A DNA stretch of 64,000 bases. It comes from a phage. Below, one piece after another: positions 4,051-60,226 of this stretch. The stretch is taken from sequence record PV874203.1; one strand, written 5' to 3'. The translations under genes were made by a program, and so were the position numbers. Position 1 is the stretch's first letter; the number at the start of each line of letters is the position of its first letter. Below the pieces are notes generated by a model that was not told the origin of the DNA, did no database searches, and saw nothing but the letters and a program-made list of their open reading frames with translations.

Positions 4051-4308
4051 CTAGATTAAATCGTAATACTGAATAATGTCAGAGAGTTTGAACTCTCGAA
4101 TCTCATCTTTCTCTACATCAATTGCTGTCATAATCCAACAAGGTTTGCCACCGTTATGAAAACGGGAGCTAGCAACGGAGGTTCGGAGTGGAATAACGGA
4201 CCGGTCAGCAACCTCGCCTCTCCAATTGCGATAGCGAAAGCGAAGCACTTGTTGCGTAGATTTTTGATCATCACTCATTTCCTTTTTTGAATTGTTTTCT
4301 TGCATCAT
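4051..4308 (-). CDS. Hypothetical protein
   Basis: 85-aa ORF in the minus-strand block, tightly packed against neighbours. Confidence 0.45.
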   Translation of the reverse strand: MMQENNSKKEMSDDQKSTQQVLRFRYRNWRGEVADRSVIPLRTSVASSRFHNGGKPCWIMTAIDVEKDEIREFKLSDIIQYYDLI

Positions 4309-4817
4309 TGGTATTCCCTAGCCATCAGATCTTCCTTAGCTTTAAGGTAGGCGTTATGTGCTTCTATTGGTGTGTTGAAACTACCTATATGTTTCCTTTT
4401 ACCTCTGAAGGTAATAGCGGCTACATAAGGATTACTCTTACTGGTCTTGTTGATAGTAACACCTTTCAATCCTGTTGAGAGGTTATCAACTCTAGGATTA
4501 CTCTTATTTAAATTCTGAAGAGATCCTTCTGCTATTCTAAGATTTTGAATAGTGTTGTTTGTCTTATTCTCATCGATATGATCCAGGCTATCTGGATATG
4601 TTCCATAAATGAGGAACCACGCCAGCCTATGAGCGAGCCAAGGCTTCCCATCAAATTGTATCCTCACATATCCATCATTACCTAGTGTCCCAGCCAAAGA
4701 ACCTTTTGAGGCTTTTCCTCCTCTTCTCACTTTCCAAAAGAAGTGACCTGTGTCTGCATTATAGTCTAACACTTCATGGAGATTGGCTAGTCTTTTTAAA
4801 CTGTTTTCGATCTTCAT
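4305..4817 (-). CDS. HNH homing endonuclease with AP2-like DNA-binding region
   Basis: Track ORF 4305..4928 trimmed to an internal ATG (MKIENS...) preceded by AAGGAA. Contains HRLAWFLIYG and DHID-N motifs typical of HNH_3 phage endonucleases. Confidence 0.7.
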   Translation of the reverse strand: MKIENSLKRLANLHEVLDYNADTGHFFWKVRRGGKASKGSLAGTLGNDGYVRIQFDGKPWLAHRLAWFLIYGTYPDSLDHIDENKTNNTIQNLRIAEGSLQNLNKSNPRVDNLSTGLKGVTINKTSKSNPYVAAITFRGKRKHIGSFNTPIEAHNAYLKAKEDLMAREYQ

Positions 4818-9313: not shown

Positions 9314-9322
9314 TATACATTA
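9314..9322 (-). promoter_or_regulatory. TAATGTATA motif (putative phage promoter element) upstream of the SSB-like gene
   Basis: Minus-strand TTATAATGTATATTA about 60 nt upstream of the start at 9253; same 9-mer recurs in gene orientation at 16338-16346 and 60218-60226. Confidence 0.35.
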
Positions 9323-9687
9323 TAACTTTTGTAAGATAAGTATCATTTTATTGGTAGTAGATACTCACTAATGGTAATGTATATAAGGTAGAGTTAGAGA
9401 ATAACTCTTGCACGGGACTGACGACGATAAGGCGCAGACGACAATCTCTCATAAGTTTGTAAGAAATTGAGAGACTACCGGAAGGGCAGGAGCCACCTGC
9501 GAGATAAAAATAGAGAATTAAGGAATCCTTGATTTAGGTTGTAGGGACTCCTAGGGACTTTGATTCTCTATTTAAAAGAATATTAATTACTTACTACCTA
9601 AATAATTAACTAGCTTACTTAAACCAAATTCAAGAATAATAGATAAAAAGATTATTCCTAAGAAAGCTAAGAAGTAAAGGATATAAG

Positions 9688-16337: not shown

Positions 16338-16346
16338 TATACATTA
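16338..16346 (-). promoter_or_regulatory. TAATGTATA motif (putative promoter element)
   Basis: Minus-strand CCATAATGTATACTCC about 40 nt upstream of the ATG at 16301. Confidence 0.35.
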
Positions 16347-39586: not shown

Positions 39587-39662
39587 TGGTGCACCCTACA
39601 GGACTCGAACCTGTAACCAACGACTTAGAAGGTCGCTGCTCTGTCCATTGAGCTAAGGGTGC
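39587..39662 (-). tRNA. tRNA-Arg (anticodon UCU), 76 nt with encoded CCA
   Basis: Hand-folded cloverleaf: acceptor GCACCCT/AGGGTGC, D-arm GCTC/GAGC, anticodon stem GCGAC/GTCGT with loop CTTCTAA, T-arm ACAGG/CCTGT with loop TTCGAGT, 3' ACCA. Confidence 0.8.
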
Positions 39663-39671
39663 TATATTTAT

Positions 39672-39980
39672 TTATAAGGAGAAAGACTTCTTACAATCCT
39701 TCTCTTCAAAAGTGTAGTAGCCTGTTGTATCAGGGAAGTAGGCATACTTTGTTTCTTTGCCATCAATAGCCATGACACGATTACCAGAAGTTGTTTCTAC
39801 AAACAGAAGCCCATCTCTTACCATACCATGAGATTCTTTGATACCAGTTAAGCTATGCTCTTTAAGAGTGCATTGCTGAACACTCTGATACTTAACTCCA
39901 ATCTCTGCACTATTAACAGAGATGATACCAATGGTTGTCATTAGTAGTAAGGTTGAGATGATAAAATGCTTTTGTTTCAC
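39672..39980 (-). CDS. Hypothetical secreted protein
   Basis: N-terminal signal-peptide-like segment (MKQKHFIISTLLLMTTIGIISVNSA). Confidence 0.45.
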   Translation of the reverse strand: MKQKHFIISTLLLMTTIGIISVNSAEIGVKYQSVQQCTLKEHSLTGIKESHGMVRDGLLFVETTSGNRVMAIDGKETKYAYFPDTTGYYTFEEKDCKKSFSL

Positions 39981-44245: not shown

Positions 44246-44689
44246 CTATTTAACCCTTGCCTCTTTGATGGGGTCAATGTATTTCTCAACGCCCCACTTG
44301 TGTTTACTATCTGCATAGAAAACATCAGGAGCACACTGGCTTGTCTTAGGAAAAGCCTGCGGGTCTTTCGTGCTACCCTTAAACTTCTGTTTACCACGGG
44401 TGCGACCATTACAGAAGATTTCTAACTTCTTCTCCTCTTCTGTTTTAGCTCCCCCGCTCTTTAACAAAGAACGTTTATGATCAGCTAACAACAACGCATC
44501 AGCACGATGGACACGATGGCCTACACGTTTTGCCACACTAGAAGGGATATGAGATTCAGCCTCAGCTTTTGCAGCACGGCGTTTTAAACTGCGCTTACTA
44601 ATGTAATTGGTTGCCTTCGGCTTCCCTTTCTCCAGTTCAGAGATAGAAAAACAACGCCCGCCCTTCATGCTGATTTTAGATTTAGTCAC
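44246..44689 (-). CDS. Hypothetical basic protein
   Basis: 147-aa Lys/Arg-rich ORF. Confidence 0.45.
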   Translation of the reverse strand: MTKSKISMKGGRCFSISELEKGKPKATNYISKRSLKRRAAKAEAESHIPSSVAKRVGHRVHRADALLLADHKRSLLKSGGAKTEEEKKLEIFCNGRTRGKQKFKGSTKDPQAFPKTSQCAPDVFYADSKHKWGVEKYIDPIKEARVK

Positions 44690-44968: not shown

Positions 44969-45189
44969 AATGCTTGATACCTTTGGATATGTTCAATACG
45001 GGTGGATTGAGCAAATGACGCTTTAACCGCCATCTTTCTAGCTTCTTCCTTACGTTGGTTAGTGTGTACAGTATCCCAATGATTGTTATCACGTTGGCGC
45101 TGTAATATCTTACTACATTTGCGATGGTTTCCCGTGCTGCGATGTTTCTCACAAATAGGGCACTTGCCAAAATTATTACTGAATATCAT
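44965..45189 (-). CDS. Hypothetical Cys/His small protein
   Basis: CPICEKH...H pattern; an overlapping alternative frame (44958..45170) exists. Confidence 0.4.
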   Translation of the reverse strand: MIFSNNFGKCPICEKHRSTGNHRKCSKILQRQRDNNHWDTVHTNQRKEEARKMAVKASFAQSTRIEHIQRYQAL

Positions 45190-45413
45190 TTTCTCAATCC
45201 CAGCTTTCTTAAGATACGGCCTAACGTTGTTTCTTGCGTGATAATATAGCTGATCGCCTCACGTTCCAACGTTTCAATTTTCATTGGCGACGGATACCAT
45301 TCACCAGTAATCACGCATTTACATTCAACGCCATACTTTTTAGATAGGCGGTAATGTTGACCGTTGACAAGATTCCTATAGATCGTGGTGTGTGTAATTA
45401 ACATGATCGTCAC
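45186..45413 (-). CDS. Hypothetical protein
   Basis: 75-aa ORF. Confidence 0.4.
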   Translation of the reverse strand: MTIMLITHTTIYRNLVNGQHYRLSKKYGVECKCVITGEWYPSPMKIETLEREAISYIITQETTLGRILRKLGLRK

Positions 45414-45516
45414 CTTTGATTATATTCTTTGATTAATGCACTGAATCAATGCACTGATAAAAGAAAAAGGCGATACCCGTTAAGATAGCGCCTCATGTTT
45501 ATTAGAATTATCTTAC

Positions 45517-46425
45517 TTATGCTGCCTGACGTGCCGCCATAATCTCAGCCGCTTTACGCAATACTTCCTCTTCTTCTTCTTTCGCAGCTTGTTCGGTACG
45601 GGTAGCAACCGTTGAAGAGATACGACCGCGCAGTCCTTCTAACTTCTCCTGCATAGCTGCGATAGTCTTTTCCATTTCATCAGCGTATGAATCGAGTGAT
45701 TCCAGTTCCTTGCTTGATGCGTTCATCAGATAATCGTCAGAGATCGCTACCGTTGAAGCCGTGACTTTCTTGATGAGTGAATCAAAGGACTTTTTAACCT
45801 TGCCCACTTCTTCACTCAGTGCGATCGTGTTATCGCTGGTAGCGCCGTTGCGCTCATCAGCCAGTAATTTGGCTTCAATACGGATTGCATTCAAGCGTTC
45901 AACCAAAGCGTAAATATCTTGGTTAAAGTCTTCTTTATTCTTTGCCGGAATTTGCAGGTGTGCCGCTACGTTGTCATTGCAACCTTTGAAGAAGTTAGGG
46001 TTATCGACTTCAATTTCACGACCTAAGGCAAAGTTTTCGAAAGCATTTGACCAGCGAGCGCGGTTTTGTTCCATTTTGGCCTTAATTTGCGCCTCTTTCG
46101 CATCTTCTTTCGCTTTCGCTTCACCTTCCAGATTAATCCACTTCTTACGGCCATTCGCCGCATCAGTGTTAAACTTGATAGGAGTTAAGAAAGTGATTGC
46201 AGTGGCGATCACGTCCATATCGCGGAAGCGTTCAGTTAACAGAAAGTCAACCGCCGTCTGCAATACTTCTAACTTTTTACCGTTACTGCGGAAGTGCTGC
46301 AAGTGCCCTAACAGAAAATTAGAAACATCTTGCTTGATCGCCGCGTTATTGCTACGAATGTTGTTAGCCAGTGCGTTAAAACCAGATTCTTTTACCAGAT
46401 TAAAAACTTTAGCCATGATATTCAC
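45517..46425 (-). CDS. Hypothetical protein (helical, Ala/Lys/Glu-rich C-terminus)
   Basis: 302-aa ORF; first gene downstream of the 1.7-kb ORF-poor region. Confidence 0.5.
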   Translation of the reverse strand: MNIMAKVFNLVKESGFNALANNIRSNNAAIKQDVSNFLLGHLQHFRSNGKKLEVLQTAVDFLLTERFRDMDVIATAITFLTPIKFNTDAANGRKKWINLEGEAKAKEDAKEAQIKAKMEQNRARWSNAFENFALGREIEVDNPNFFKGCNDNVAAHLQIPAKNKEDFNQDIYALVERLNAIRIEAKLLADERNGATSDNTIALSEEVGKVKKSFDSLIKKVTASTVAISDDYLMNASSKELESLDSYADEMEKTIAAMQEKLEGLRGRISSTVATRTEQAAKEEEEEVLRKAAEIMAARQAA

Positions 46426-47242
46426 CTTTCAATTGTAAGGGCACTATGCCCCGCTCTCTATGAGCTTGTTTAAGTCACTATTAACTTAACTATAACCACT
46501 CGTTGTTAAGTAGTTATAGGTAAGCGGGGCGGTCTTATCAGGAGTTAACCTTGCCGCCCCCTTATCCGTGATGTTTCATCTGGTACGCTTTAATTTTCCG
46601 CTATAAATAAAGCCGGATTGCGTAGCGATGATCAATCATCACAATAAGGCTATGCGTCCAACTCAATTTAATTACATTGCTGTAACCGTTGGCAATATCG
46701 TCTACTTTGCTTTCGCTCCCGCCTATCCTTTGTGCCAACTCCTAACCGCTAACCATCGCCCACTACGGGAGGTTATTGCGGAAAGAGATCATTGACCGCC
46801 TAATATTCCGGCGTTTTATATCTTTCGGCGGGTTTACTACATAACCCGACTATGTACTTCCGTCATAAGACGAATCTCAAGCCGTTCACATCGTAAACGT
46901 TCGCATTAAACCTTATTGTTAAATAGCAATTTGCCACTTTTTAACCACTCCCCGCCGCCCTCAATTGGGCGTTAATTCGTCGGACTTGTCTGCCCTGATT
47001 AGTTTCTTTCACTGTAGCACCGTGTTAGCGATGGCCGCCGCTACCCTTAACCGTGGGCGATTAGCTTAAACCTTTGCGTGTACTCAATGAATCCGCTTAT
47101 CAGTGGCGACTTTTCCAGTTAAGGGATTGTAAAACTGTTTACCCTGATGTTTTAGGGAGTTTTACGCCGTTTTATCTGGTATGCTGTCCGATGGTTATTA
47201 TCTTCCAGCATATTTAACCGATATATGGGAATGTTTAAATTG

Positions 47243-47868
47243 TTAAAGAGCGGTAAATCTGTCAGCGTGCTTTCTCACGCTACGCAACTGTTAGCCGTTG
47301 TTACGCTTTTCACTTAAGCGGTGATTTGCTTCAGTGATGCTCATTATGGACCATGATGTTTTTGCTGTCAACCGCTTTTTTAATCTTTTTCGTCGTTCCC
47401 GCTATTGGGAGGATATATCAACCCGCTTTATTGGGTTGAAGATTAAGCGATGAGGCTTAACCCATGATTCATATTGTTAAAGAGCGTTTAGCCTTTTATA
47501 GTGTCTGCTAATCACTGCATCATTAAAGGCTTACTTATTCATTAACGGGGCGCCTAATCCCGAACTACCCGCTGCACTATGTGCCACCTTTCCCGCGATA
47601 CGTTGATTTAGGAACTAGTTAACGTTGTTTTGTTAACTTGTGGTTAGTATGAACTACCTTAACCACGTTTGCAACCCTTTTTTATCATCTTCTTTTATTC
47701 TTTTCCCTTATCTCGCTTGAATCTATGCGAAAGGGCAAGATGATAAGTTTTTAAAGAGCGGGATGCTTTAAGTCATCGCTGACTATGCTCACTATATATC
47801 AGGCTATTTTCGGTGTCAATACTCTTTTTAAGAATATTTTCACTTTCTAGCCTGATTTTTAAAGAGCG
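47243..47868 (+). repeat. Four dispersed copies of TTAAAGAGCG(G) in an ORF-poor 1.7-kb region
   Basis: Copies at 47243, 47477, 47751 and 47859, in two subtypes (ATTGTTAAAGAGCG x2, TTTTTAAAGAGCGGG x2). Confidence 0.5.
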
Positions 47869-48204
47869 GGGCAATTTCTTGCCTTGTATGTTTTTCATCG
47901 TACCCGATGAATTGAAGTATACATTAATCAGTGAGGGATGCAATAGGGTAAAGCAAACTATTTTAAACTTTTTCACTATAGGGAAGATAAAGGAACGGGT
48001 GCGCGTGATACATCATAGAAAACGGCTTGTAAAGCGATATTTAGCGGCCTAAAACGCACTATAGCGAGCTAAAAGGGAGTAAGGTATACAATCACCTTAG
48101 AAACGATAAGAGCCTCACTAGGAGGCTTATAGGAAGGATTTAGAGCATTAGATAGATTATGACCATAGGCATGACTACGGCACAATATAGGAGAAAGATT
48201 AAGC

Positions 48205-48579
48205 CTATGGATTTACACACTGACCATTACCTGATGCCATTTCATTCATGGACTCATCAAAGAGCGTCAACGATGAGCGCATTAAGTGATCAACCGTAAC
48301 TTGTTTACCAGTGGTTTCATTCACTAATTGAATAGTTTTAGCGTATGATTGTACATGCTCGAAATCATTTACATGCAAAATAATAACCTTAGGTGACTTT
48401 TTACCAGTCTCATAATTCTCCACAAGATAGGTGCACTGTAAACCGTCAACCGTAGCAGGGGAAAACGTTGCAGCTTTAACGCTACCCATAGCAGATAGTA
48501 AGACACCCAACAGAAGAATGACCAGAAAGAAGCCTACAAATACTTTCACTACGAATTTAATAATACCCATGATAATCAA
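48205..48579 (-). CDS. Hypothetical membrane protein
   Basis: N-terminal hydrophobic helix (IIKFVVKVFVGFFLVILLLGVLLSAMG). Confidence 0.5.
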   Translation of the reverse strand: MIIMGIIKFVVKVFVGFFLVILLLGVLLSAMGSVKAATFSPATVDGLQCTYLVENYETGKKSPKVIILHVNDFEHVQSYAKTIQLVNETTGKQVTVDHLMRSSLTLFDESMNEMASGNGQCVNP

Positions 48580-48672
48580 CCTTTAGTTAGAGAATGTAAG
48601 AATACAGCATATCAGCGACGAATAACGCCACTGTAACAACGAACAAGCAACGCCAAAAATAATCACAGATCA

Positions 48673-48927
48673 TTAGTTGCACTTACCCTCAAAATATGCT
48701 ACGCTAAGTAGTTCGATCTCTTCCAGAGAAAGGAGAATCTCACGTTGCGCCAGATAACGACCAATTTCAGCGTCATCCATAGCTAGAGCGACAGCAGGAA
48801 ACTCAACCGCATCAGCCTTATCGCCACTAGTAAACAAGATTAGACACATGTCAGAACTGTCAGTGTATGAGAAATCAATATCCCCATAGTTGTGCGTAGA
48901 GATAGTGAAGCTATATTCTTTAGCCAT
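48673..48927 (-). CDS. Hypothetical protein
   Basis: 84-aa acidic ORF. Confidence 0.45.
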   Translation of the reverse strand: MAKEYSFTISTHNYGDIDFSYTDSSDMCLILFTSGDKADAVEFPAVALAMDDAEIGRYLAQREILLSLEEIELLSVAYFEGKCN

Positions 48928-49171
48928 GTATCAATCCCTCACTAAGCAGGTTAGCCAGAGTTAAATCACCGTCAATATAAATTGACTTGAAATCTTCACG
49001 GGTAATTTCAAAATTAGCAAAGGCTAACCAATCCTTAAGAGGTTGAAATTCCATCCTACAAAAAGTAATAACAGGTAACGTTATCTGACCATCAAGCGTG
49101 TTAAACATGATTTCAGAACGACCAACGAAACAGGAAAAACCATTAGCCAGCTTAATTTCTTTGATAGCCAT
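48920..49171 (-). CDS. Hypothetical protein
   Basis: 83-aa ORF. Confidence 0.45.
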   Translation of the reverse strand: MAIKEIKLANGFSCFVGRSEIMFNTLDGQITLPVITFCRMEFQPLKDWLAFANFEITREDFKSIYIDGDLTLANLLSEGLIHG

Positions 49172-49275
49172 AACCTACACTCCCAAAACAATAAGAACAT
49201 AATAAGCAATTGCAGTTGCAATCACCGTGAAAATCAAAGATAGCAAAAATGAACTAGTACTGCAAATTAATCTTC

Positions 49276-49767
49276 TCATTTGTTAGCCTTAATGCAGTTG
49301 GCTAGATTGATGTGAACAGTATAAACAGCGTTATCCGCATTATTGTAAACCGTAGTGGCGATCATCGACTCTTTAACCGGTCCATAACTCACTAGGTTGG
49401 TTACAGCTTTAACGTCTTCGTAACGTTGTACAGTGCCATACGTCACCATATCCGCATCGTTATCGGTACGCTTGAGAACTAGATCATTGTTAGGCTGATT
49501 GTCCAGTGTCTTAGACTGAAAGAGAACGCCTTCACTAGTTACGTTACTAAATTTCACTTTTAACACGATGTTATTGCTGTCACTATCCGCACCATTGCAA
49601 ATCATCCAACCCTTATTGATGGAACTAGCGAAAACATCAGCGGCATTAGTTGCAGGAGCTGGACTAGCGATAGCCTTATCAGAAAGAGATGTGACCAGTG
49701 CACTAACACCGATAGCTGCAACCAGTGCATAGCTTGCCAGATTTACTACCTGCATTGCCTTAGCCAT
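49276..49767 (-). CDS. Hypothetical secreted/periplasmic protein
   Basis: Signal-peptide-like N-terminus; first gene of the minus-strand block. Confidence 0.5.
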   Translation of the reverse strand: MAKAMQVVNLASYALVAAIGVSALVTSLSDKAIASPAPATNAADVFASSINKGWMICNGADSDSNNIVLKVKFSNVTSEGVLFQSKTLDNQPNNDLVLKRTDNDADMVTYGTVQRYEDVKAVTNLVSYGPVKESMIATTVYNNADNAVYTVHINLANCIKANK

Positions 49768-50435
49768 TTTTGTTACTCCTTATATAAATTCAATCAACTG
49801 TTACCAACTATATATTAAAGGAAAAGACCGTCAACCAATTATTTTCTAACTTTCTTGCATCCTACTGAAAACTAAAGGAATTTAATTTACCTAACTTTCT
49901 ACATTCAGGGGATTATCTTACTTCTTATTGTTACTTTATAACACTACGGATGTAACGCTATCGCTACGGGTAGCAGACCAACATACCAGGACACGGAGAG
50001 CACACAACCGCAGAACAGACCACGGGGAAACATAGCCAGATAGTGCGGTAATAATATACCACTTAAATAATTAGTTAACTCAAACATCAAAGACGTTCGC
50101 TACGCTCACAAAGGCACGCTGAAAAAGGAAAGAATAAACATCAATAAAAACAATCATTCTTAAAAGAATTATTAAAAGAAACATAATCATCCACTTAATT
50201 AATACATACATACGACGCTACTTCGTAGCTGTGCATTCCATGCACCCATCATATATTGCACTCATAATCATTACTATTGAAACTATTTACACTCAAACTA
50301 TGGGGAGTGGTGACCATCATTAATGGCTTTATTAGCAGACTAATCAGTTGGCCTGTACAGTGTTAGCCTTTCTCTCACTCTTTAAAGGGGTACTAAATAA
50401 ACGGGTAGGTAATGTAATGAGTAGTATACACGGGG

Positions 50436-50474
50436 AAAGAATAACGGGGAGTAGGCACGGGGAAAAGCTGGAAC
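50436..50474 (+). repeat. Three closely spaced ACGGGGA(A/G) direct repeats in the divergent intergenic region
   Basis: TATACACGGGGAAAGAATAACGGGGAGTAGGCACGGGGAAAAGC; a further CACGGGGAAA copy near 50021. Confidence 0.45.
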
Positions 50475-50617
50475 GTTGATAGGGATGTAAAGGCGTTGCC
50501 AATAACCCTTTTTTATTTGAGGACTCCCCCTTTTTTAACAATTCGCCGCGGAGGGCCTAGCCCCACTCGGTCAAATCAGAATTTTAAACACTTATATATA
50601 AGGTTGAAAGAGAACTT

Positions 50618-60217: not shown

Positions 60218-60226
60218 TAATGTATA
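60218..60226 (+). promoter_or_regulatory. TAATGTATA motif (putative promoter element)
   Basis: GTGTAATGTATATTC 34-42 nt upstream of the ATG at 60260, followed by AAGGAGG. Confidence 0.35.

Follow-up and report, generated by a model that had tools for sequence, protein, structure and literature searches.

Organization of the spacer and its flanking genes

The present analysis concerns a spacer of 1,788 nucleotides (nt) located at positions 46417-48204 of a 64,000-nt stretch of phage DNA (sequence record PV874203.1; hereafter the window), the four short repeats that the spacer carries, and a conserved structured RNA of about 840 nt to which its left half appears to give rise. A preliminary description, made from the sequence alone, had singled out this region as poor in open reading frames (ORFs) and as lying inside the early operon; the former held, and the latter is consistent with published work. 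The spacer separates homologues of phi32_124 and phi32_125, and an equivalent gap was found in phiEco32 (positions 72787-74730) and in every fetched relative with annotation at this place (TH34 and NC-B are unannotated there). Both flanking genes are encoded on the minus strand, and the spacer is therefore to be read on the minus strand, that is, leftwards. When 1.85 kb around the spacer was used as a query, 98 phage records were matched, all of them podoviruses of Escherichia coli or Shigella of the phiEco32 group (Gordonclarkvirinae), with the genera Kuravirus, Suseptimavirus, and Nieuwekanaalvirus represented; the best match was 92% identical, and 78-79 of the records covered at least 80% of the query. 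By sequence similarity, the window thus belongs to a Kuravirus, a phiEco32-like podovirus. The place of the spacer inside the early operon agrees with the published analysis of phage SU10, in which three promoters described as 'like phiEco32' were predicted in the spacer, a terminator was noted after gene 121, and the long early gene series was served only by the spacer promoters and one promoter at the genome end (PMC4281155).

The relationship of the spacer to the physical genome ends was determined from the terminal repeats of its relatives. Window positions 50365-50535 were matched by the direct terminal repeat annotated in 4E8 as well as by the final 193 bp of phiEco32, and a single copy is present there with 87% identity over 171 nt to the 193-bp phiEco32 repeat. 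This places the spacer 2.2 kb inside the right genome end, within the early region, and indicates that the window crosses the junction of the physical genome ends, with an assembly that is circularly permuted or concatemer-like. A packaging or terminal-repeat role for the spacer, as had been considered, was refuted, the homologue of the repeat being about 2.2 kb away. The gene strand changes from minus to plus right at this homologue. The impression of a GC-richer island was likewise not sustained: positions 46440-48200 had a GC content of 0.416, the whole window 0.417, and the adjacent gene 0.449, and a slight elevation was detected only in the left half of the spacer (0.435 at positions 46417-47260).

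The phi32_125 homologue closes the first early operon as its last gene and was intact in 10 of 11 relatives. Many GenBank records, as well as PHROG 13168, call this 124-residue protein a 'terminase'; the label looks like a propagated misannotation because the protein is small, has an N-terminal hydrophobic segment, and is placed in the first early operon. On the other side of the spacer, the true start of the phi32_124 homologue was assigned to the ATG at 46416, where a mechanical ORF list had extended the gene to a GTG at 46425, and no function is assigned to its product in Pfam or PHROG. Searches of the neighboring proteins against these two databases returned no function and no RNA-binding, reverse transcriptase, nuclease, or N-like domain. 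The features of the locus are collected in Table 1.

Table 1. Features of the spacer and its flanks in order of transcription (window positions)
Feature	Position	Strand	Remarks
phi32_125 homologue, 124 amino acids (upstream flanking gene)	48205-48579	-	PHROG 13168; N-terminal hydrophobic segment
Intrinsic-terminator-like hairpin AGCCTC-CTAGT-GAGGCT after phi32_125 homologue	48111-48127	-	Resembles SU10 terminator 74441 (PMC4281155 Table S2)
Exact consensus TAATGTATA of gp36 (phage sigma factor) middle/late promoters	47918-47926	-	About 50 nt upstream of BoxA D
Second hairpin upstream of BoxA D	47894-47911	-	Local fold
Hairpin GGCAA-GAAA-TTGCC, boxB-like position	47870-47883	-	2 nt upstream of BoxA D; 58-nt fold z = -3.6
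BoxA D (GCTCTTTAAAA)	47857-47867	-	Repeat copy first listed at 47859
Predicted early sigma-70 promoter P1, TTGACA-17-TATAGT	47791-47819	-	11/12; A/T-rich upstream stretch; resembles SU10 promoter 73996
Small hairpin AGTCA-GCGA-TGACT	47771-47784	-	Between predicted P1 start and BoxA C
BoxA C (GCTCTTTAAAA)	47749-47759	-	Repeat copy first listed at 47751; about +25 to +35 from predicted P1 start
Most conserved spacer block	47680-47748	-	94-96% column identity; directly 3' of BoxA C in all relatives
Predicted weak P2-like promoter, TTGCAA-17-CATACT	47646-47674	-	8/12; probable counterpart of SU10 P2, 73668
Variable cassette	47491-47663	-	Present in window, 4E8, and partly TH34; replaced or absent in other relatives
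BoxA B (GCTCTTTAACA)	47475-47485	-	Repeat copy first listed at 47477; 13 nt as in rrnB leader
Predicted early sigma-70 promoter P3, TTGACA-17-CATAAT	47343-47371	-	11/12; preceded by A-rich UP-like stretch; resembles SU10 promoter 73511
boxB-like hairpin UAGCGUG-AGAAAG-CACGCUG	47263-47282	-	11 nt upstream of BoxA A; three compensatory pairs
Large conserved structured non-coding RNA or leader, about 840 nt	46420-47258	-	Conservation without coding, structure, covariation
BoxA A (GCTCTTTAACA)	47241-47251	-	Repeat copy first listed at 47243; 16 nt as in rrnB leader
RNA domain I	47239-46940	-	Consensus fold
RNA hairpin between domains I and II	46939-46921	-	Consensus fold
RNA domain II	46919-46641	-	Consensus fold
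RNA domain III	46640-46570	-	Consensus fold
RNA 3' hairpins	46560-46526, 46519-46490, 46488-46471, 46452-46438	-	Consensus fold
Inverted-repeat hairpin GGGGCGG...CCGCCCC (helix 39)	46526-46560	-	5 of 7 pairs compensatory
'Anti-BoxA' UAGAGAGC	46453-46460	-	Nearly invariant; predicted pairing with BoxA A
phi32_124 homologue, 299 amino acids (downstream flanking gene)	45517-46416	-	PHROG 13018; Shine-Dalgarno AAGGTG 46428-46423

Conservation of the spacer without coding

Coding potential was examined by comparing the spacer with its counterparts in related phages. All spacer ORFs of at least 45 codons were interrupted or truncated in relatives, while the flanking gene was intact. The variable alignment columns of positions 46426-47490 were distributed 144/135/156 over the three codon phases, compared with 79/51/232 in the adjacent gene, and codon periodicity was absent from the spacer (p = 0.47) when it was pronounced in the gene (p = 7e-35). 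No third-position excess was detected in any 150-nt window of the spacer, and its insertions and deletions were mostly of 1-2 nt and thus frame-breaking. Positions 47490-46417, from BoxA B to the start codon, nonetheless aligned without breaks in all relatives, and the identity of the RNA was higher than that of the adjacent gene (85% versus 75% in SU7; 79-85% versus 74% in Bas88). Variable columns made up 41% of the RNA, compared with 77% of the codon third positions and about 21% of the first and second positions of the adjacent gene; this intermediate variability indicates a region that is non-coding yet under selection. By these comparisons, coding in the spacer is very unlikely. The preliminary description had itself raised the prospect that the region encodes ordinary small proteins, which would have to fall below ORF-length filters, and some GenBank records do annotate 1-11 tiny ORFs in it. 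These annotations disagree in strand and position between records, however, and with the ORFs disrupted in relatives and codon-phase signal lacking, we give this explanation hardly any credence.

Identification of the four repeats as BoxA by sequence

The repeat TTAAAGAGCG was found exactly at positions 47243, 47477, 47751, and 47859, on the plus strand in all cases, and in the two subtypes originally reported, ATTGTTAAAGAGCG and TTTTTAAAGAGCGG. A search of the whole window with TTAAAGAGCG returned 11 matches at no more than one mismatch where 4.0 were expected, a number reached by none of 100 shuffles. Though the sequence and positions of the repeat had been given correctly, its nature had not been recognized: the copies are BoxA elements on the transcribed strand rather than promoter elements. 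On that strand the repeat reads CGCTCTTTAA(C/A)A, also written CGCUCUUUAA(C/A)A, with copies A and B reading CGCTCTTTAACAA and copies C and D reading CGCTCTTTAAAAA, and all four match perfectly the gamma-proteobacterial BoxA consensus GYTCTTTAANA (Baniulyte et al. 2017, PMC5725501). Seven matches to this consensus were detected in the window compared with 0.65 expected (0 of 100 shuffles reached 7). The identity extends beyond the consensus, as BoxA A lies in a 16-mer (GCTCTTTAACAATTTA) identical to the E. coli K-12 rrnB leader and BoxA B is identical over 13 nt. When the spacers of 11 GenBank relatives were scanned, 3-5 BoxA copies were found in each, with all 45 copies on the transcribed strand and unchanged even where the surrounding DNA was mosaic and unalignable.

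Apart from the spacer copies, two perfect consensus matches occur on the plus strand (44456-44466 and 39857-39867), antisense to the minus-strand early genes, and could be due to chance or to antisense transcription. One plus-strand match lies within the phi32_120 homologue.

An alternative reading of the CGCTCTTTAA repeats is that they serve as double-stranded DNA operators, through which a phage or host protein would regulate the early promoters, and not as BoxA in RNA. Operator arrays are common in phage early regions, and the copies do cluster around the promoters, with one placed upstream of P1. The uniform orientation of the 45 copies with respect to transcription is at odds with this, as are the widely varying distances to the promoters, the lack of dyad symmetry, and the match at 11 of 11 BoxA positions, which extends to 16 nt shared with the rrnB leader, more than a plausible operator core would account for. 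We regard operators as a very improbable explanation.

Predicted promoters, hairpins, and mosaic organization of the upstream half

The upstream half of the spacer (47490-48204), which is mosaic, was examined only by eye and with local folds. Promoters were scored by hexamer matches out of 12, and all promoters and start sites given here are predictions. The earlier suggestion of a promoter or regulatory cluster proved right in outline, as two near-consensus sigma-70 promoters, P1 and P3, were identified in a region for which three promoters have been predicted in SU10; the correspondence of P1, P3, and the hairpin at 48111-48127 to SU10 sites is by sequence similarity. P3 was present at the same place in 11 of 11 GenBank relatives scanned, and its -10 element was invariant in 22 of 22 aligned sequences. 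Its start site is predicted at about 47336, which would place BoxA A at about +85. BoxA B lies behind the weak P2, which in the window phage and in 4E8 carries a 30-nt insertion directly after the TTG of the -35 hexamer; other relatives are without this insertion, and in five of them the promoter is predicted as TTGACA-16-TAGAAT. The U-tract of the terminator-like hairpin that follows the phi32_125 homologue is degraded in the window phage (CTTATCGTTTCT).

A recurring module was apparent in the spacers of the relatives, in which a TTGACA-16/17-TATAAT-like promoter is followed by BoxA 25-150 nt further on, with 1-3 promoters above threshold in each spacer. The P1 and P3 cassettes were found to be weakly similar to each other (nhmmer E = 0.02). 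The promoter zone as a whole is mosaic, in that individual phages carry, lack, or have replaced cassettes of about 170-185 nt irrespective of genus boundaries; relatives also carry an insertion after BoxA C (e.g., L002 positions 4199-4383). These patterns suggest that promoter-BoxA modules have been duplicated and exchanged. The variable cassette of the window showed no significant fold (z = -1.0). Two copies of CACTATAG(G/C)GA... at 47974-47993 and 48057-48076 on the plus strand are superficially like the 3' half of T7-type promoters; read on the minus strand they give ...TATAGTG, like the -10 element of P1, without a usable -35, and they are possibly relics of promoter cassettes.

In place of the P0 sigma-70 cassette of phiEco32, Paul, EP335, and E20-1, the window phage carries TAATGTATA, an exact match to the published gp36 promoter consensus (PMC8948821, PMC4281155). 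Among the relatives examined, this site was shared only with CHD5UKE1. As judged from the motif, it would permit middle or late transcription of the BoxA cassette and the large RNA in the lineage of the window phage. Further exact copies of TAATGTATA are located at 9314-9322 (minus strand), 9375-9383 (plus), 16338-16346 (minus), and 60218-60226 (plus).

In local folds, the BoxA of copies D, C, and A was essentially unpaired and had a hairpin ahead of it. The hairpins before copies D and C are predicted from folds, and covariation support is limited to the hairpin before copy A (helix 4), in which alignment columns 128/144 are GC in 15 sequences and AU in 7, and columns 129/142 are CG in 10 and UA in 10. 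The conserved block of about 70 nt that follows BoxA C was predicted to form a long irregular hairpin (CUUAUCAUCUU...AAGAUGAUAA) with an A-run at its end, and is possibly a processing site or a factor-binding site.

Downstream of the spacer, no further sigma-70 match of at least 10/12 was detected on the minus strand between 36000 and 46500. Two good tandem intrinsic terminators were found midway through the early unit, past the phi32_120 homologue, at 44165-44148 (AGCCGC...GCGGCT followed by TTTT) and 44080-44061 (GCCCCGGC...GCTGGGGC followed by TTTTTT), both on the minus strand, and no strong sigma-70 promoter was found after them on this strand. The annotations of 4E8 and SU7 place terminators in the same part of the early unit.

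A conserved structured RNA of about 840 nt

RNA structure was assessed on an alignment of 22 distinct sequences from GenBank, IMG/VR, and metagenomes, generated by MAFFT without structure information. The RNAalifold consensus comprised 249 pairs in 43 helices, and standard pairs accounted for 99.1% of the alignment cells at these positions compared with 34-47% when the partners were slid by 1-3 columns. Compensatory double changes were observed in 76 pairs, a count that overstates the number of independent events, as the 22 sequences are 73-92% identical and related by descent, compared with 31.5 ± 3.2 in shuffles (0 of 500 reached 76) and 4-11 in the slid controls. The slid controls keep the relatedness and are far lower nonetheless. 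To avoid circularity, the minimum-energy fold of the window sequence alone, for which no comparative information is used, was also placed on the alignment; compensatory changes were found in 75 of its 264 pairs, and 96.4% of the cells were paired. The long-range helices supported by these analyses include (i) positions 47239-47226 paired with 46954-46940 (helix 7); (ii) a helix of about 26 bp in domain I; (iii) the closing stem of domain II, 46919-46892 with 46700-46641; and (iv) an inner helix covarying at 6 of 6 pairs.

The structure is strand specific. G.U pairs occupied 635 cells and A.C pairs 14, the complementary strand would pair only 87.8% of the cells, and the minus-strand RNA was more stable by 30 kcal/mol (z = -8.7 versus -5.2 for the plus strand). 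The excess of G.U and the stability of the minus strand indicate that the folded molecule is the transcript. On this comparative evidence, the RNA of about 840 nt is real and under selection. The notion of structured non-coding RNAs in the region was therefore correct as to structure, though one large multi-domain RNA was found rather than several.

The GC-rich inverted repeat reported earlier was present and corresponds to helix 39, a covarying hairpin whose 21-nt loop (CAAGGUUAACUCCUGAUAAGA) is near invariant. At the ends of the RNA, AUUUACC (47258-47252) is predicted to pair with the Shine-Dalgarno region GGUGAAU (46426-46420) and, together with the pairing of BoxA A and the anti-BoxA, to close the whole molecule in both the consensus and the single-sequence folds; this closing helix is offered as a hypothesis from the folding models. 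A pseudoknot between the 21-nt loop and AGGAGUU at about 46730 was rejected as the partner varies without compensation, and an enrichment of CsrA-type GGA motifs was also rejected, about 10 GGA being counted by eye in 820 nt. A 17-nt motif, AGC(A/G)UACCAGAU(A/G)AAAC, occurs twice in the RNA (47169-47185 and 46573-46589, both on the minus strand) and is highly conserved. It is complementary at 11 of 12 positions to codons 5-8 of the downstream gene (46393-46404); pairing of UACCAGAU(A/G)AAA with these codons was set aside, as no compensating change was seen where the gene varies, and the match may be due to chance.

The RNA was compared with known families and searched for elsewhere. No family of Rfam 15, among them GOLLD, ROOL, OLE, group I and group II introns, RNase P, tmRNA, 6S RNA, and phage pRNA, was matched by window positions 45000-50000 or by four diverse relatives (cmscan, E <= 1), and no tRNA or transfer-messenger RNA was detected within the spacer, the sole tRNA of the window being a tRNA-Arg (39587-39662, minus strand, anticodon TCT) among early/middle genes. 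A blastn search of 5,426 E. coli genomes yielded nothing similar to the RNA. With an nhmmer profile of the RNA, one copy was detected in the window, and phage 7-11 gave no match. When collections of viruses, metagenomes, and genomes were scanned for patterns, the hits were confined to close Kuravirus-like contigs and a 21-mer in one Muribaculaceae metagenome-assembled genome, which was not matched by the nhmmer profile and is probably a chance match. A protein-anchored scan for a wider distribution yielded five near-identical loci only.

A replication origin, which the preliminary description had listed among its possibilities, found no positive evidence, and the strand specificity of the conserved structure points to RNA. 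A related proposal would be that the structured region is an origin or primer RNA, with transcripts from P1 to P3 folding and then priming or activating DNA synthesis, as for ColE1 RNA II or the promoter-dependent primary origin of T7. Such a role would suit a conserved RNA with strand-specific covariation, directly behind strong promoters and about 2-4 kb from a genome end, and we know of no origin identified for phiEco32-like phages. Yet no iterons, AT-rich unwinding block, or DnaA-box-like repeats were seen in the locus, where BoxA, a transcription-elongation signal not known at origins, is the sole repeat family; the GC skew does not switch at this site; and no break or terminator separates the RNA from the Shine-Dalgarno sequence and start of the next gene. 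An origin or primer function is thus considered improbable.

Proposed function of the cassette

Considered together, the evidence makes it probable that the spacer is an early-transcribed non-coding cassette similar to an rRNA operon, with promoters, a boxB-like hairpin, and BoxA elements that recruit host Nus factors. Tandem host-type sigma-70 promoters (P1, P3, and the weakened P2) would each lead through a hairpin to a BoxA. In rrn operons and CRISPR (clustered regularly interspaced short palindromic repeats) arrays, BoxA is bound by NusB-NusE and Rho resistance is acquired with NusA, NusG, and SuhB (PMC7665894, PMC10250234); by analogy, the nascent phage BoxA would be bound by host NusB-NusE(S10) and, with NusA, NusG, and SuhB, would render the polymerase processive, Rho resistant, and faster. 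The modified polymerase would cross the untranslated structured RNA and then reach the early genes. Antitermination would be needed as (i) a structured untranslated RNA of about 840 nt would otherwise be prey for Rho, with about 920 nt of untranslated RNA between the strong promoters and the first start codon; and (ii) few promoters, including the one at the genome end, serve a long early gene cluster. Shielding of long untranslated RNAs from Rho by BoxA has been described (Stringer et al. 2020, PMC7665894). Since a polymerase is modified only by a BoxA that it has transcribed, each promoter would need its own downstream BoxA, which would account for the presence of four copies, irregularly spaced and all in one orientation. 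According to the rrn model, the polymerase-tethered BoxA holds the adjacent 5' strand until its distant 3' partner emerges (PMC10250234); the 5' strand of the covarying helix 7 begins 2 nt past BoxA A and so fits this tethering model. Closing of the RNA by the BoxA/anti-BoxA and Shine-Dalgarno helix could, in addition, couple Nus release to translation.

Several points, besides the kinship of the aligned sequences considered above, weigh against this interpretation. Motif sequence identity, conservation, orientation, absence of coding, and RNA structure were established directly; from these we infer Nus binding, antitermination, transcript ends, and RNA function, and the promoters and start sites are predictions. 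In the window phage, BoxA D has no evident sigma-70 promoter upstream and P2 is weak. An rrn-type boxC (UGUGUGGG) follows none of the four copies, and the GU-rich boxC (UCUGUGUGGG) expected 18-19 nt after BoxA as the 5' strand of the leader-trailer helix was found after no copy; helix 7 may mimic the boxC function. The last 10 kb of Salmonella phage 7-11, its early region, contains no BoxA, and the device is therefore not general to phiEco32-like phages in the wide sense. The closing helix shows no covariation, as both of its strands are invariant, and two sequences carry a mismatch in it. Finally, complexes of the rrn type are much more effective against Rho than against intrinsic terminators, such that the terminators downstream may need something more.

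As to what the RNA does, our preferred guess is that it serves as a functional product or scaffold that the phage produces in the early phase of infection. We suggest, tentatively and with less than even confidence, that it belongs to a novel class of large functional RNAs, being produced early by a virulent coliphage from a counterfeit rRNA operon and acting in trans during host takeover. The rrn-like promoter-boxB-BoxA machinery may in that case both shield the RNA and chaperone its folding, and the RNA may serve as a scaffold, as a decoy or sponge (for Nus factors, ribosomal proteins, RNases, or a defense sensor), or as a catalyst. It may also gate translation of the next gene, as modeled, through burial of the Shine-Dalgarno sequence in the closing helix. 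That the RNA is solely a cis-acting 5' leader, which switches the translation or stability of the phi32_124 homologue and of the early polycistronic mRNA, would be in keeping with its continuity with the gene, with the burial of GGUGAAU against AUUUACC predicted in both folds, and with the change of a U.G pair of the closing helix to U-A in two sequences. The closing helix lacks covariation, however; near-invariant loops, such as the 21-nt loop of helix 39, suggest a binding partner; and about 40 helices, many of them with compensatory changes, and three multi-branch domains far exceed what known leaders that sequester a Shine-Dalgarno sequence require. We find an exclusively cis-acting role rather doubtful. 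Our order of preference, itself a guess, is thus a trans-acting product (scaffold or decoy), then a purely cis-acting leader, and then a replication primer.

If the cassette operates as proposed, it would explain, in a way open to testing, how few promoters suffice for the transcription of a very long early cluster in these phages; the study of the more distant relative 7-11, itself without BoxA in its early region, left antitermination 'to be defined' (PMC8948821). BoxA/Nus antitermination, so far known from rRNA operons, lambdoid nut sites, CRISPR arrays, and a few genes, would be extended to a strictly lytic, non-lambdoid phage that uses one BoxA per promoter and no N protein. In the searchable literature on phiEco32 and Kuravirus, which did not cover the primary phiEco32 transcription papers, no paper was found that links these phages with boxA, antitermination, or non-coding RNA. 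Few large structured RNAs have dozens of covarying pairs, and those that have been solved turned out to work by new mechanisms; the present RNA belongs to an E. coli phage family that is genetically tractable and counts about 100 sequenced members. There are also practical consequences, as annotators now fill the spacer with 1-11 contradictory tiny 'hypothetical proteins' per genome, and engineers of therapy phages who use Kuraviruses should not take it for dispensable filler.

Comparison with known systems

Among known systems, the leader of the E. coli rrn operons, with its tandem P1/P2 promoters, boxB-boxA-boxC order, and antitermination complex of NusA/B/E/G, SuhB, and S4, comes closest in sequence and arrangement. 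Common to both are tandem near-consensus sigma-70 promoters with A/T-rich upstream stretches, a hairpin before BoxA (boxB then boxA), a BoxA identical over 13-16 nt (copies B and A), and a long untranslated structured RNA downstream with long-range helices that start right after BoxA (PMC10250234). The phage locus differs in that it is without boxC, has four BoxA over about 620 nt behind separate promoters, carries as cargo an RNA of about 840 nt unrelated to rRNA followed by protein genes, and resides in a virulent phage.

The nutL and nutR sites of lambda and lambdoid phages are similar in combining, behind an early promoter of the phage, a BoxA with a small hairpin whose loop is rich in purines (GAAA, GCGA, and AGAAAG in the window phage), with terminators downstream in the early unit. 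A lambda-type nut site was nonetheless rejected: the hairpins precede BoxA, which is the rrn order, whereas in lambda BoxA precedes boxB; no N-like Pfam domain is present in the four products of the first early operon; and the phage is strictly lytic and non-lambdoid. The lambda BoxA (CGCUCUUA) is also weaker than the full rrn-type consensus.

The BoxA of CRISPR arrays and of the suhB leader provides a precedent for the same consensus outside rRNA, where it shields a long untranslated transcript from Rho or affects a nearby translation start (PMC7665894, PMC5725501). Those elements are chromosomal and single copy, unlike the phage BoxA, which is multi-copy and placed ahead of a structured RNA.

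GOLLD, ROOL, OLE, and raiA are large 'ornate' RNAs of about 600-850 nt with many covarying helices and with functions that have begun to emerge only recently, if at all, and GOLLD and ROOL are phage associated. The phage RNA shares their size class and multi-branch covarying domains; it differs from them in having no Rfam match, in being fused to a BoxA cassette and an mRNA, and in a distribution seen to be confined to coliphages of the Gordonclarkvirinae.

In T7, the A1-A2-A3 cluster consists of strong host-polymerase promoters at the first-entering genome end, ahead of the early genes, and the spacer resembles it as a gene-free stretch with strong promoters a few kb from the terminal repeat. 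To our knowledge, neither BoxA nor a long conserved structured RNA lies behind the T7 promoters. The BoxA elements of the spacer thus belong to a known class, and the phage 'pseudo-rRNA operon' with its previously undescribed RNA of about 840 nt is a new arrangement.

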